Part shown: one piece after another, positions 31,470 through 38,129 of the stretch
How the letters are laid out: each line of letters starts with the position of its first letter
How positions within the stretch are numbered: the stretch's first letter is position 1
Assembly (NCBI GenBank): GCA_023954355.1
Contig: JAMLID010000005.1
Span: 38,092-102,091 of the forward strand
DNA from: Oligoflexia bacterium
Lineage (GTDB): Bacteria > Bdellovibrionota > UBA1018 > CAIPTA01
Length of the DNA stretch: 64,000 nucleotides
Reading direction: 5' to 3'
Position numbers and translations under genes: made by a program
Notes under the pieces: generated by a model
What the model was told of the DNA's origin: nothing
The model's input: only the letters and a program-made list of their open reading frames with translations
Database searches by the model: none

Positions 31470-32315
31470 ATGACGAACAACATCGCTGATCTTGAATTTG
31501 TTGCCTTTGATACGGAAACAACTGGCCTTTCTCCATTTACAGAGTCTTTAGTCGAAATCGCGGCTGTGCGATTTAATCTAATCCAAGGCCCTCTAGAATA
31601 TTTTCAAACTCTAGTGAATCCTGGAAAAGAAATTCCCTGGCAAGCAACAAAAGTTCACGGGATCACCAACGAAATGGTATTCGAGGCTCCTCCTATTGAA
31701 AAAGTTTTACCTCCTTTTTTTCAGTTTTTAGGAAACTCAATTCCCGTAGCTCATAATGCAGGTTTTGATATTGGTTTTATTAGCCTCTATAGCTTGCGAC
31801 ACGAGATCATCCCCACTGAGCAACCGATTTTAGATTCCTGTATGTTTTCCAGAAGAGTGCTTACAGAGCAACCAAGCCATGGCCTTGAGGCATTGGTTAA
31901 TTCTTTACAAATTACAGCTGCCGGGGCCTCTCACCGTGCTCTAGCAGACACCAAACACTGCATGGAGCTTTTTCGCATCCTAGTAGGACGCTCTTGTGGA
32001 ATCAATGCCAGCTGGGAAGATTTACTTAAGGTTCATGGGAAAACCCATTCCTTCAATGAAGGCAGTCGACCTCTAGAAGAAAATGAGGCTAAATCGCATT
32101 TATTGCCATTATTTGAAGCCTTAAAAGAGCGCTCTTCCATATGGATAGAGTATGATGGGGGATTCGGCCCTCGAGAGGTTTCGCCCCTTATGGTATACGC
32201 TAAAGGCTCACAACAATACCTTGAGGCAACTTGTCATTTGGATGGCATTCGTAAGAGTTTTCGATTAGATAAGATCCGAGCAGTAAAAGGTAATTATTCG
32301 TTTATAGATAAGTAA
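31470..32315 (+). CDS. DnaQ/DEDDh 3'-5' exonuclease fused to a C-terminal WYL domain.
   Basis: Exo I FVAFDTETTGL, Exo II AHNAGFDIGF, Exo III HRALADTKHCMELF. The C-terminal stretch IWIEYDGG..PREVSPLMVY..GSQQYLEATCHLDGIRKSFRLDKIRAV fits the WYL consensus (WYL.A.C......R.FRLDRI). Confidence 0.6.
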   Translation: MTNNIADLEFVAFDTETTGLSPFTESLVEIAAVRFNLIQGPLEYFQTLVNPGKEIPWQATKVHGITNEMVFEAPPIEKVLPPFFQFLGNSIPVAHNAGFDIGFISLYSLRHEIIPTEQPILDSCMFSRRVLTEQPSHGLEALVNSLQITAAGASHRALADTKHCMELFRILVGRSCGINASWEDLLKVHGKTHSFNEGSRPLEENEAKSHLLPLFEALKERSSIWIEYDGGFGPREVSPLMVYAKGSQQYLEATCHLDGIRKSFRLDKIRAVKGNYSFIDK

Positions 32316-32373
32316 TGAATAAGGACAAATCTAAGATGAGCCTAATTTGGTGCGAGACAAAGAAGCCGACCGA

Positions 32374-32413
32374 GAAAATTCTCAATGTAGTATTATCTAC
32401 ATTGAGAATTTTC
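32374..32413. repeat. Perfect 17-bp inverted repeat with a 6-nt spacer (GAAAATTCTCAATGTAG tattat CTACATTGAGAATTTTC). It is intergenic, between the exo-WYL gene and tdh.
   Basis: Read directly from the sequence. It lies about 60 nt downstream of the exo-WYL stop and about 60 nt upstream of the tdh ATG at 32476. It could be a terminator or an operator. Confidence 0.7.
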
Positions 32414-32475
32414 GCAGAGAGGCTGAGGCAGTCGCAGCGCAAAAGAGGCCATCGATTATACCTAAAGGATTTTTC

Positions 32476-33606
32476 ATGAAGGCACTCACCCTAAAAGTCG
32501 ATAGAACAACTTGGACACAAACCACAGGTTATGAATTACAAGACATACCAACCCCCACCTTGGATTCTAGTGAACAGGCCCTCATTGAGCCTCTTTTTGC
32601 CGGAATGTGTGGTACAGATAAAGGCATTTGGTTTCGAAAAGCTTTTCGTGAATCCATTCTTTCACACTTAGAAAAAGACAAGCGCAATTTCTACGTCATG
32701 GGACACGAAATGCTCGGACGAGTCGTTGAGATTGGGCAGAATACTCGCAATATAAAAGTAGGAGACATCGTAAGCACAGAATCTCATATTTTCTGTGGTC
32801 ATTGCCCTATGTGTTTGCAGGCAACCAGCACGTCTCTGCGCTAACGAGAGAATCATTGGTGTAAATTGGGATGGTTTGCCGAAAAAGTAAAGCTGCCTAC
32901 AAACGTATTATGGCCTACTTCTTTAGAAAGAATCCGCGCAGAGGTTGCTGCCATCCAAGAGCCCTTTGGTAATGCTGTTCATGTGTGCACACCAAATATG
33001 CTAGGATCAGACCTCAATAATGCTGAGATGAAAGGGAAAAACATTGCTGTTTTTGGTTGTGGAACCATTGGAATGTTTGCCATCATGATTGCAAAAGCCA
33101 TGGGAGCGAAGAAGATTATTGGAATTGAACCAAACCCTACAAACCGCGAGAAAGCACTCGCCTGTGGTGCAGATCATGTGATTTCTCCTTCTGGAGACTC
33201 AGCTAAAGAAATCCAAGATTATTTTTCTTCTTACGGGGCAGATTATTGCTTAGAAATGAGCGGGTTTCCTTCTAGTGTAATTCAAGCCGTTCGTGGTGCC
33301 GCTCGTGGTGGACATATTGTTTTATTTGGCCTCTCTAGTGGCGATCTTACGATTCCACAATTTGAAGAAGTGATTACTGCGGGGAAACGAATTCACTCTG
33401 TTGTTGGACGAAGACTTTTCTCTACTTGGGAAATCACAAAAAAACTTCTAGAAGATCACTCTAATGGCATTCAAGAAATGGTTTGGAAAACTGTTTTAGA
33501 ATCAGGTAAGGGAACCATCATACCTTTTCAAGAATTTACGAAAGAAAAAATCGAGACCGCACTTCTTGAACACCCTAAGTTGCTATTAGAAATTAATAAG
33601 ATTTAA
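32476..33606 (+). pseudogene. tdh: L-threonine 3-dehydrogenase (Zn-ADH family) disrupted by two compensating frameshifts (about 32822 to 32876) that introduce an in-frame TAA.
   Basis: MKALTLKV..GMCGTDKGIW..MGHE..CGHCPMC, then a frame switch (QPARLCANERIIGVNWDG in frame +1), then back to GWFAEKVKLP...GCGTIGMFAIMIAKAMGA. The same frame carries TAA at 32842-32844. kbl is nearby. Confidence 0.7.
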
Positions 33607-33622
33607 AACCTCTAATCATTTA

Positions 33623-34549
33623 CTAAGCTTCAAGCTCGATCTTAAATGCTATATTTTCAATAATATCTAGCTGGTTTTCAGAAAGAGAAAAGTCGCTAAT
33701 CTCTAAATCTTCTTTCATATGAAACTCTGATCGAGTTCCGGTAATAGGAATCATGCCTCGCTGCTGACAAAATCGAAAAATAATCTGCTGAATAGATTTT
33801 CCTGTTTCTTCTATAATAGCTTGTACACTTTTATGTACTTTAGTCGTAGATATTTTCTCTTGAAATATTAAGTGCGGAATATTCCTATTTGACGGCCGCT
33901 CTACTTCTCCACCGATAAATTTCCAATTCGCTGTTAATAAAGAAAATCCTTGGTAGTAAATTTGATTTTTATGACAAAAGTGACGAAGCTCCTGATCCCA
34001 AGCTGTATCTGCATAACAACGATTCTGCACAAAAGTGGGTTTAACTTTAGCGCCTTCATAAAGCTCCATCAATTGTTCAAGAGTTACATTAGAAATACCT
34101 ATAAATCGGACTTTCTCTTGCTTTTTTAAATCCTCCATAACTTCCCAAACTTTCCAATCTGCCTTAGTAAGTTCAGTATGTTTACTAGGACCATGCAAGA
34201 GATAAGAATCTATATATCCTGTATGCAGGTGATGAAGAGAACTTTCAAAACTTTGAAACACTTGCTCTTGTAATGGAGCTTGTTCATCATAGGGTAAGCG
34301 ATGATCCTGTCCTCGAATATAGGTAAATTTTGTTTGGAGAAAGAGATCCTCTCTTTTAATTTTTAAATCGGTATACGTCTTTACTAAGGCTTTGCCTACC
34401 CCTTCTTCGTAGTAATGCTTTCTTTGATTTGCGGTGTCTATAGCCCTAAAACCTGCATTAATCGCATTATACGTACAAGATTCAGTTAAATCTTCTTTCC
34501 AGGCGGTACCATATATCAGACCAGGAAAGGCAGACACTTCTGAAGACAT
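33623..34549 (-). CDS. Aldo/keto reductase family oxidoreductase.
   Basis: GLIYGTAWKED..AGFRAIDTANQ..Y..E is the AKR N-terminal catalytic tetrad region. About 308 aa. Confidence 0.75.
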   Translation of the reverse strand: MSSEVSAFPGLIYGTAWKEDLTESCTYNAINAGFRAIDTANQRKHYYEEGVGKALVKTYTDLKIKREDLFLQTKFTYIRGQDHRLPYDEQAPLQEQVFQSFESSLHHLHTGYIDSYLLHGPSKHTELTKADWKVWEVMEDLKKQEKVRFIGISNVTLEQLMELYEGAKVKPTFVQNRCYADTAWDQELRHFCHKNQIYYQGFSLLTANWKFIGGEVERPSNRNIPHLIFQEKISTTKVHKSVQAIIEETGKSIQQIIFRFCQQRGMIPITGTRSEFHMKEDLEISDFSLSENQLDIIENIAFKIELEA

Positions 34550-34685
34550 AAATAAAATCTCACTTTCATTATAAAAACTAACACCCCATTTAATGAATTC
34601 CAAATATTGCTAGACGCAAAAATAATAAAAGTTCTGAGCTGCACCTCAGCTTGCCCGTCTTTGCAAAAAACGATACAAACTGCTT

Positions 34686-35879
34686 ATGAATACCGAATTT
34701 ACCATCCATTTAAAGCAAACACTTTCGACCCTAGAGCAACAAGGTCTTTATAAGAAAGAACGCTATATTGAAGGTCCGCAATCAAATAAGATTCGAGTGA
34801 ACAATACTGAGGTTTTAAACTTTTGTGCAAATAATTATTTAGGCCTCTCTTCTCACCCCTCTCTTATCCAAGCAGCGCATGAGGGATTAGACCAATTTGG
34901 TTATGGATTGAGTTCTGTACGATTCATTTGCGGAACCCAAACAATTCATAAAAAACTAGAAAGCTCGATCGCTAAATTCTTAGGCATGGATGATGCCATT
35001 TTATTTTCTTCTTGTTTCGATGCTAATGGTGGGGTCTTTGAGGCACTTCTTGGAGAAGAGGATGCTATCATCTCTGATGAACTAAACCATGCTTCTATTA
35101 TTGACGGCATTCGCCTTTGCAAAGCAAAACGTTTTCGCTATACCAACCGAAACTTAGAAAGCTTAGAGCAAAATCTTAAAGACGCTTCTTCTGCTCGTTT
35201 TAAATTAATTGTAACTGATGGTGCATTTTCTATGGATGGTACCTTAGCTCCAATTGATAAAATTTGTGATTTAGCACAAAAATATGGTGCTCTTGTTATG
35301 GTCGACGATTCTCATGCTACAGGTTTTATGGGAGAAAACGGCCGTGGTTGCCATGAACATTACAACTGCCTAGATCGAGTAGACATCATCACCTCTACTC
35401 TAGGCAAGGCCTTAGGCGGTTCTGCAGGTGGCTTCGTCGCCAGCTCGCAAACTGTGGTCGATATGCTTAGACAAAAAGCCCGCCCTTATTTATTTTCTAA
35501 TACACTTACACCTCCAGTGGTGAATGCATCCATTAAAGCCCTAGAGTTAGTTTCTGACTCAAATATCGGCGGCAAACTTCGCGCGCAATTAAAAGCTAAT
35601 ACGCAAAAATTTCGCACCGAAATGACGAAAGCCGGCTTTCATATTTATGAAGGAATACATCCTGTTGTTCCTGTAATTTTGGGGGAGGCTGAACTAAGCC
35701 AAAAGTTTGCTACTGAAATGCTTAATGAAGGTATTTATGTAGTCGGATTCTTCTTCCCCGTGGTGCCAAAAGGAAAAGCCCGAATTCGAGTACAACTTTC
35801 GGCCTCACATACAAACGAAGATATAGAAAAGGCACTTCAAGCTTTTATCAAAATTGGGAAAAAGCTTTCTGTCATTTAA
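34686..35879 (+). CDS. kbl: 2-amino-3-ketobutyrate CoA ligase (glycine C-acetyltransferase).
   Basis: PLP-dependent class-II aminotransferase fold. The TSTLGKALGG lysine is present. 397 aa. Confidence 0.85.
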   Translation: MNTEFTIHLKQTLSTLEQQGLYKKERYIEGPQSNKIRVNNTEVLNFCANNYLGLSSHPSLIQAAHEGLDQFGYGLSSVRFICGTQTIHKKLESSIAKFLGMDDAILFSSCFDANGGVFEALLGEEDAIISDELNHASIIDGIRLCKAKRFRYTNRNLESLEQNLKDASSARFKLIVTDGAFSMDGTLAPIDKICDLAQKYGALVMVDDSHATGFMGENGRGCHEHYNCLDRVDIITSTLGKALGGSAGGFVASSQTVVDMLRQKARPYLFSNTLTPPVVNASIKALELVSDSNIGGKLRAQLKANTQKFRTEMTKAGFHIYEGIHPVVPVILGEAELSQKFATEMLNEGIYVVGFFFPVVPKGKARIRVQLSASHTNEDIEKALQAFIKIGKKLSVI

Positions 35880-36939: not shown

Positions 36940-37445
36940 AAACACTACTTTGTTTATTTATGCTAATTCTTACCCCCTTTGCTCAGGCACACGAAGGATC
37001 ATGGTTTGCTGTAGGCCCAAGCTACGAAAATATCACCAGTGGAAATTCTGAAGGTGGGTGGTCAGTAAATGCAGAAGGTGGATACTGGTACTTAGGCAAC
37101 GTAGCTTACGGTGGACACTTTAAGGCAGCATTTTTCGGAGATGTTAATGGAAATGCGGCATCTGGCTTAAAAATTTATGATATGGGTGTTTTTTGGAAAG
37201 CAGCCTCTGAAGCTGGTTTTTATGGAAAACTCTTGGCTGGTCTAGCATTCGTAAATCACGATGGCACAAATACAGGCTTTCGCATGGGTGATGGAAAAAG
37301 TTTTTATATTGGTTTAGGTGGAGGATTCTTATTCCCGCTTACCGAAACTCTCAATATTGGACCTGAAGTGATCTATCGCCATTTGACTGCGAGAAACGGT
37401 GGAGACCAAATTAGTATAGGAATGCTCGTATCGTTCAGTCTTTGA
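36936..37445 (+). CDS. Small outer-membrane beta-barrel-like protein (Gly/aromatic-rich).
   Basis: Signal peptide MKTLLCLFMLILTPFAQA, followed by alternating Gly/aromatic beta-strand patterning. ATGA overlap with mutY. Confidence 0.5.
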   Translation: MKTLLCLFMLILTPFAQAHEGSWFAVGPSYENITSGNSEGGWSVNAEGGYWYLGNVAYGGHFKAAFFGDVNGNAASGLKIYDMGVFWKAASEAGFYGKLLAGLAFVNHDGTNTGFRMGDGKSFYIGLGGGFLFPLTETLNIGPEVIYRHLTARNGGDQISIGMLVSFSL

Positions 37446-38129
37446 TGTTTCTAAGATTTTGTCCCCACCTAGGATAGTTAGGTAGGGTAAAATTTTAGTG
37501 ATTAAGTCTCTATTATTTTCTACTCGAACGCCTTCTTGTTCTAATGAAGTCCAAGAAGCGCGTTCTGCACTAATTAAACCAAATCCTGAACTACTTGCTC
37601 GAGTGACATTGATAGAAAATCCGTGGAATACATACCCATCTTTCACTGTAATCGCCAGAGTTGCTAGCTTACCTCTAGCCGTCCACAAACTCGATTCGTT
37701 CGCTTTTGTCTGTACAGAGCGAACTCCTAGTACAGCTAATGCATGAGCTAATCCCATAAGCATTTCGTCAGTGAACCTACGCAAGAGATCTATACCTTCT
37801 AAATCACTTAGTTTTAAAATAGGAAAGCCAATAATTTGCCCTGGTCCATGATAAAGCGCACCACCACTGCGATCAGTTTTTAGAATTTGAATGCCTCTAT
37901 CTTCAATAAAATTTTTAGAAACCGCTATATCTTCTACACCACAAGAATCTGCACCTAATGTTATCGTCTCAGGAGATTCAAATGCCAAAAGACCCGAGTA
38001 ATTTTCAGCACTCAAGAGCCCTTGTAACCGCAAGGCACGCTCATAAGAATAGTTTGATCGATAAGAAAAGAATGCAGGTTTCAAACAAAGTCCCCTAAAT
38101 TTTATCCGATATGCTCTGTTTTCCATCAA
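37329..38129 (-). CDS. lipB: Octanoyltransferase LipB (lipoyl(octanoyl) transferase) with a ~40-aa C-terminal extension.
   Basis: GGALYHGPGQ and KLATLAI (catalytic Lys), FHGFSINV. The 3' end overlaps the convergent gene at 36936-37445 by 117 bp. Confidence 0.7.
   Translation of the reverse strand: MMENRAYRIKFRGLCLKPAFFSYRSNYSYERALRLQGLLSAENYSGLLAFESPETITLGADSCGVEDIAVSKNFIEDRGIQILKTDRSGGALYHGPGQIIGFPILKLSDLEGIDLLRRFTDEMLMGLAHALAVLGVRSVQTKANESSLWTARGKLATLAITVKDGYVFHGFSINVTRASSSGFGLISAERASWTSLEQEGVRVENNRDLITKILPYLTILGGDKILETSKTERYEHSYTNLVSTVSRSQMAIDHFRSNIESFGKRE

Follow-up and report, generated by a model that had tools for sequence, protein, structure and literature searches.

Does the broken reading frame of a tdh-type dehydrogenase gene in an Oligoflexia bacterium record a mutation of the organism, a site of translational recoding or an error of the assembled sequence? 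The window, i.e. the whole stretch of 64,000 nucleotides analysed (G+C content 38.9%), stems from a metagenome-assembled genome (MAG) and represents a population consensus. An ATG at 32476 opens a frame-1 ORF for a medium-chain (zinc-type) dehydrogenase, which ends according to the ORF list and the translation at a TAA (32842-32844). The predicted product is cut to 122 aa. Up to the break, frame 1 reads ...CGHCPMCLQ, ...ESHIFCGHCPMCLQ, and directly after the TAA it is open again and runs to a stop codon at 33604-33606. The +1 register encodes QPARLCANERIIGVNWDG. A preliminary description of the locus had reported both the interrupted and regained frame and the content of the +1 register, and translation bears this out. 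The TAA itself arises when the conserved Ala-Asn codons, GCT AAC, are read in the wrong frame.

In the NCBI annotation, the ORF 32866-33606 with a TTG start at 32866 is identical to MCO5142003.1, a 246-aa "zinc-binding dehydrogenase" encoded on a contig of 115,856 nt. This C-terminal ORF is the sole protein of the tdh locus in the public annotation, which carries no flag for a frameshifted tdh there. The N-terminal fragment (32476-32844) is absent from the protein collection searched.

Reading frames and indels of tdh

The break was analysed by a codon-by-codon line-up of the window with 11 orthologue DNAs, namely the locus L001 and ten others. L001 (Logan run SRR25621603) contains the DNA of the closest orthologue, P0001, which has 84% amino acid identity and encodes CPMCLQGNQHVCANERIIGVNWDGVFAEKIKLP in a single frame. 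The stretch from ESH to KLP comprises exactly 41 codons in all 11 orthologue DNAs, from 84% down to 41% identity, and 120 nt in the window. Relative to the closest orthologue and the ten further DNAs, tdh carries three indels within 55 bases, of -1, +2 and -4, with a net change of -3 (Table 1). The first indel follows the last frame-1 codon, CAG at 32818-20, and damages a codon that is GGN in all orthologues compared. The second could equally be placed at 32833-34. The third removes the third base of a Gly codon and a whole Val, Ile or Cys codon, and frame 1 is back from the TTT at 32875. The preliminary description had proposed two compensating shifts about 50 bp apart. The orthologue DNAs instead place three indels at other positions, and the disruption occurs in none of the relatives compared. 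In the 30-odd orthologues used in the comparison, tdh is intact.

Table 1. Features of the tdh locus and of the two genes that follow it (window coordinates).
Feature	Coordinates	Strand	Content	Evidence
tdh N-terminal part (M1 to Q115)	32476..32820	+	frame 1; catalytic Zn ligands C45, H77, E78; structural-Zn C107, C110, C113	translation, 13-homologue alignment, alignment to 2d8a
Lesion 1	32821..32822	+	Gly codon remnant GC, one base lost (CAG GGC to CAG GC)	11 orthologue DNAs
N Q H V (AAC CAG CAC GTC)	32823..32834	+	third frame only	homologous to the NQHV of the orthologues
Lesion 2	32835..32836	+	2 extra bases TC, tandem duplication within GTCTCTGC	orthologue codon comparison
C A N E R I I G V N W D G (TGC...GAT GG)	32837..32874	+	second frame only	translation, alignments
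Frame-1 TAA	32842..32844	+		ORF list, translation
Lesion 3	32874..32875	+	4 bases lost at the junction (GGN GTN TTT to GG TTT)	orthologue codon comparison
tdh C-terminal part (FAEKVKLP...INKI, stop)	32875..33606	+	frame 1; NAD-binding GCGTIG	
Aldo/keto reductase gene, between tdh and kbl	33623..34603	-	convergent	ORF list, family search
kbl (glycine C-acetyltransferase)	34686..35879	+	intact	625 bits against a cut-off of 460, NF005394

The codons between the outer indels had been claimed to resemble TDH, and this similarity holds. The shifted frames yield 18 residues, which are those of the closest orthologue, except for the damaged Gly codon and the lost Val. The lesion exceeds chance similarity. 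All nucleotide mismatches between the window and L001 in the aligned stretch are at third codon positions. The peptide QPARL, which had been taken for TDH sequence, results from reading the NQHV codons out of register. It is the third frame that encodes the conserved GNQHV. Reconstructions of the gene were ranked with a profile built from 13 homologues. The three-indel reconstruction scores 682.3 bits, or 693.2 bits with the Gly and Val restored, followed by the earlier two-shift model (672.6 bits), read-through in frame 1 (640.3 bits) and skipping of the segment as in a bypass (627.1 bits). The three-indel model exceeds the two-shift model by 9.7 to 20.6 bits. On the codon line-up and the profile scores, the two-shift model was dropped. 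The lesions fall in the structural-zinc lobe of the protein, whose four cysteines are not encoded in one frame. The fourth (TGC 32837-39) follows two indels and lies inside the second-frame stretch.

All conserved residues remain encoded, and after about 55 nt the original frame returns. Such an arrangement could point to programmed recoding, with ribosomal frameshifting or bypass producing the full-length enzyme from the mRNA, and the preliminary description had listed a recoding site among its options. Recoding would however need three separate -1 shifts, taking the ribosome from frame 1 to frames 3, 2 and back to 1. The sites concerned (CAG-GC, GTC-TC-TGC and GG-TTT) contain no slippery heptamer of the type X XXY YYZ and no long homopolymer at 32818-32824, 32832-32839 or 32870-32878. 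The local fold is not significant (z-score -1.18). A bypass would drop invariant residues, and its profile score is the lowest of the models. The arrangement occurs in no relative, all of which encode the stretch in one frame. With three -1 shifts needed, slippery sites absent and a TAA that would stop translation first, recoding is effectively excluded, and we consider its probability exceedingly low.

Alternatively, tdh might now specify two functional polypeptides, i.e. the 122-aa N-terminal product and the 246-aa C-terminal product initiated at the TTG. The call of the 246-aa ORF as a protein in the NCBI annotation favours such a split, but the N-terminal fragment has no counterpart in the protein collection. 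The split would also lie within the structural-zinc lobe, and the fourth cysteine, the invariant R-I-I-G and the D-G would be lost. Contigs with full-length homologues lack the split, and short homologues such as P0099 and P0106 are located on contigs of 1.0-1.5 kb. Two functional polypeptides are thus very improbable.

Identity and neighbourhood of the gene

The best NCBIfam families of the reconstructed protein are two TDH equivalogs (NF003808 / TIGR00692; 223.8 and 219.8 bits), and the next-best family reaches 149.8 bits. The equivalog cut-offs of 380 and 458.35 are not reached. Because of this score, the gene is assigned to a divergent subgroup of a Bdellovibrionota type, with products of about 386 aa and N- and C-terminal extras. 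Among PDB sequences, each of the five top matches is an L-threonine 3-dehydrogenase (189 to 145 bits), and a generic Zn-ADH follows at 107 bits. The residues C45, H77 and E78 and the motif G196-C-G-T-I-G201 are invariant in a 14-sequence alignment and align with 2d8a. The four structural-zinc cysteines are also conserved in the alignments with homologues and 2d8a. Given the family and structure matches, the conserved residues and the gene order, the gene is the positional orthologue of tdh and is treated here as the functional tdh type of its clade, despite the score below the cut-offs. The NCBIfam and PDB matches and the gene order in relatives agree with the initial identification as a tdh-type dehydrogenase partnered with kbl. 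The window contains no tdh paralogue.

The order SDR (minus strand), exonuclease, tdh, kbl and mutY is kept in Bdellovibrionota relatives. In most related loci, including those of Nitrospina and a Patescibacteria MAG, kbl follows tdh within 6 to about 150 nt. Downstream of tdh, an intact kbl and a convergent aldo/keto reductase gene separating it from tdh had both been described, and both are recovered here (Table 1). The kbl product is annotated as MCO5142005.1 and aligns over its full length with 65-73% identity to Bdellovibrionota relatives and 54-56% identity to Nitrospina and Patescibacteria. The true start of the reductase is probably inside the longest ORF. Among the fetched loci, the reductase insert is common to the window and L001 only. 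The insertion is older than the split of the two lineages. The tdh of L001 is intact despite the shared insertion. The insertion was therefore rejected as an explanation for the damage to tdh.

The junction between tdh and kbl (33607-34685 of the window) is a recurrent insertion point, and unrelated genes occupy it in other relatives. The junction ORFs encode 416 aa in locus L003 (3194-4988), 351 and 205 aa in L016 (4158-5938) and 221 aa in L006 (7152-7844).

The spacer of 160 nt between the exonuclease gene and tdh (32316-32475) is conserved relative to positions 1-168 of L001 about like coding sequence. It overlaps a 54-codon ORF (32315-32479), and no Rfam families were found in this upstream region. 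In more distant relatives, the exonuclease-tdh spacer is much shorter, at roughly 10-40 nt. The region may represent a leader or regulatory element specific to the sub-lineage. The spacer also holds a perfect 17-bp inverted repeat at 32374-32413, which consists of GAAAATTCTCAATGTAG, 6 nt and CTACATTGAGAATTTTC and is unique in the window. The homologous spacer of L001 is without the right arm and shows a 15-nt gap. Since this arm is missing in L001, the hairpin constitutes a lineage-specific inverted duplication. It is possibly a terminator or operator.

A lipB-like octanoyltransferase gene on the minus strand (37329-38129) is without the PCG motif around residues 183-193. In E. coli LipB, this motif holds the catalytic cysteine. 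The motif is kept in four of six aligned relatives. The window has I---SAE, a 3-residue deletion, and locus L005 is also without the motif (DHNG). A hidden compensated frameshift was considered for this gene and rejected, because no frame restores PCG. The motif is lost instead.

Origin of the indels

The sequence of the window appears very accurate by several measures outside tdh. Stop-to-stop ORFs account for 95% of the window, and three long ones (1243, 1209 and 905 aa) run without a break. No frameshift is visible at the 85 homopolymers of at least 7 nt or elsewhere in the window outside tdh. Five suspicious pairs of adjacent ORFs belong to different Pfam families with full-length domain matches. 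When the ORFs of 19 related loci were compared with the window by tblastn, each gave one HSP in one frame over 24.5-40.2 kb. In ten neighbouring genes, the columns conserved among orthologues were scanned for runs of disagreement. Only tdh came out as frameshifted, and the short runs in two other neighbouring genes are not shifts. The long ORFs, the homopolymers, the tblastn matches and the neighbour scan rule out a generally error-prone assembly, including one from indel-prone long reads. No other assembly of the species was found among GTDB species representatives, JGI metagenome contigs or the encoding-contig index. The 90% clusters of Kbl and of the C-terminal TDH fragment have one member each.

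The preliminary description regarded the restored frame as an argument against an artefact, and this reasoning does not hold. Restoration of the frame is without effect on the protein and cannot have been selected, because the TAA at 32842 precedes the third indel and every intermediate is a null allele. A net change by a multiple of three is expected by chance in one third of cases. The clustering of the indels carries more information. If the three indels were independent, their confinement to 55 of the 1131 nt would have p=0.0068, and a single local cause is therefore required. The same clustering weighs against an old pseudogene in which frameshifts were gathered independently. Several lesions in one gene and the insertion between tdh and kbl would be consistent with gradual decay, but beyond the lesions tdh has no other stops or shifts and its conserved positions are unsubstituted in the 14-sequence alignment and the orthologue DNAs. 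The gene has a dN/dS of 0.054 relative to L001, and kbl is intact. Gradual decay was rejected on the clustering, the undamaged rest of the gene and the dN/dS, and we give an old pseudogene a very slim chance.

A real and very recent lesion is a stronger contender. One complex event, for example the synthesis of an error- or slippage-prone repair patch, could have made all three indels, and we consider this somewhat less than evenly probable. In the dominant genotype, the product would then be cut to 122 aa and kbl would be orphaned. The surroundings of the lesion are cleanly assembled, with correct homopolymers, and an artefact of this kind would be hard to make in a short-read assembly. All changes are of a slippage type, with the contraction of a G-run, a tandem duplication of TC and a loss of 4 nt in a G/T-rich repeat. 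Several small changes within tens of bases are documented to arise from one replication or repair event (PMC5453318; bioRxiv 10.1101/2023.08.09.552703). The lineage-specific inverted duplication at 32374-32413, 460 nt upstream, indicates past template-switch-like events at the locus. The reductase insertion uncouples tdh transcriptionally from kbl, yet L001 combines this insertion with an intact tdh. Further points weigh against a recent event. Lesions of natural pseudogenes very rarely stem from a triple-indel event. TDH is the sole known source of the substrate of Kbl, and kbl is nevertheless intact. With an intact kbl and no other decay in tdh, the event must be extremely young.

A hairpin or template-switch origin of the indels is not supported. 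The TC insertion lengthens a stem from TCT/AGA to TCTCT/AGAGA. The outer sites form the pairing GGCAACC/GGTTTGCC, and the MFE z-score is -1.18. In a simulation, a fold at least as good as that of the observed sequence was reached by 17.9% of random triple-indel mutants, and the test is without signal for a recent event of this type (z-score -1.2). An inverted match of 8 nt to 32936-43 does not exceed chance expectation.

We prefer to read the three indels as a local consensus or assembly error of the MAG, to which we give slightly better than an even chance. The choice between artefact and real mutation is roughly even and leans towards the artefact. As written, the sequence encodes a dead copy of tdh, a gene normally located directly upstream of kbl, in which three slippage-type indels scramble the structural-zinc lobe and the TAA ends the product at 122 residues. 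The indels would originate from a local error in the consensus. Reads mis-aligned over co-occurring strain variants are a candidate cause, as is an uncorrected patch remaining after polishing. The organism itself would have an intact tdh of the ordinary kind, encoding about 377 residues, and we infer that the indels are absent from its DNA. All changes are indels, with no substitutions, and they form a tight cluster in a MAG, which is a population consensus. The rest of tdh and kbl are undamaged, and tdh is intact in all relatives examined. Clustered indels are the usual mark of a local consensus problem. Against a consensus error stand the apparently very high accuracy of the rest of the window and the nature of the three sites, none of which is a long homopolymer. 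Short-read de Bruijn assemblers seldom invent indels. All readings other than the consensus error and the real single event jointly retain only a small probability.

Significance and comparison with known systems

Under either reading, the disrupted gene is an ordinary one from a known family. Both readings are in line with current knowledge, and the biological weight of the finding is small. If the indels are an artefact, their chief value is a warning for annotation. Metabolic reconstructions of the MAG would wrongly score the degradation of threonine to glycine as absent or partial. The 246-aa fragment MCO5142003.1 should be represented as a full-length tdh or as a pseudogene. If the indels are real, tdh would be a pseudogene of very recent origin that has left kbl orphaned, and the locus would capture pathway loss at its first step. 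It would also provide a small natural case, from a wild population of Oligoflexia, of clustered multi-indel mutation in a bacterium.

The closest known system by best family and structure matches is the Zn-dependent MDR Tdh (EC 1.1.1.103; 2d8a, 2dfv, 3gfb, 2dq4 and 5kia). The reconstruction shares with known Tdh the catalytic Cys/His/Glu, the four-Cys zinc lobe and the GxGxxG NAD site. The locus also resembles the classical tdh-kbl operon, as the tdh of relatives is directly upstream of kbl. Compared to curated Tdh equivalogs, however, the gene in the window scores below the cut-offs, its ORF is broken and a reductase gene lies between tdh and kbl.

The two main readings each have a known parallel. 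In collapsed consensus assemblies, indels are introduced where allelic variants lie close together and displace the read alignments (PMC8445201). The frameshifts described there resemble the tdh lesion in that the differences are clustered, consist of indels only and lie in a population consensus sequence, within an ORF that is otherwise conserved. The published case concerns a diploid eukaryote and long reads, whereas the window is elsewhere without such errors. The parallel for a real event is found in multi-site mutation clusters produced by short template switches or by repair-associated frameshift mutagenesis. The three tdh indels differ from those clusters by being without significant inverted-repeat templating, and they resemble them in that all changes fall within tens of bases.
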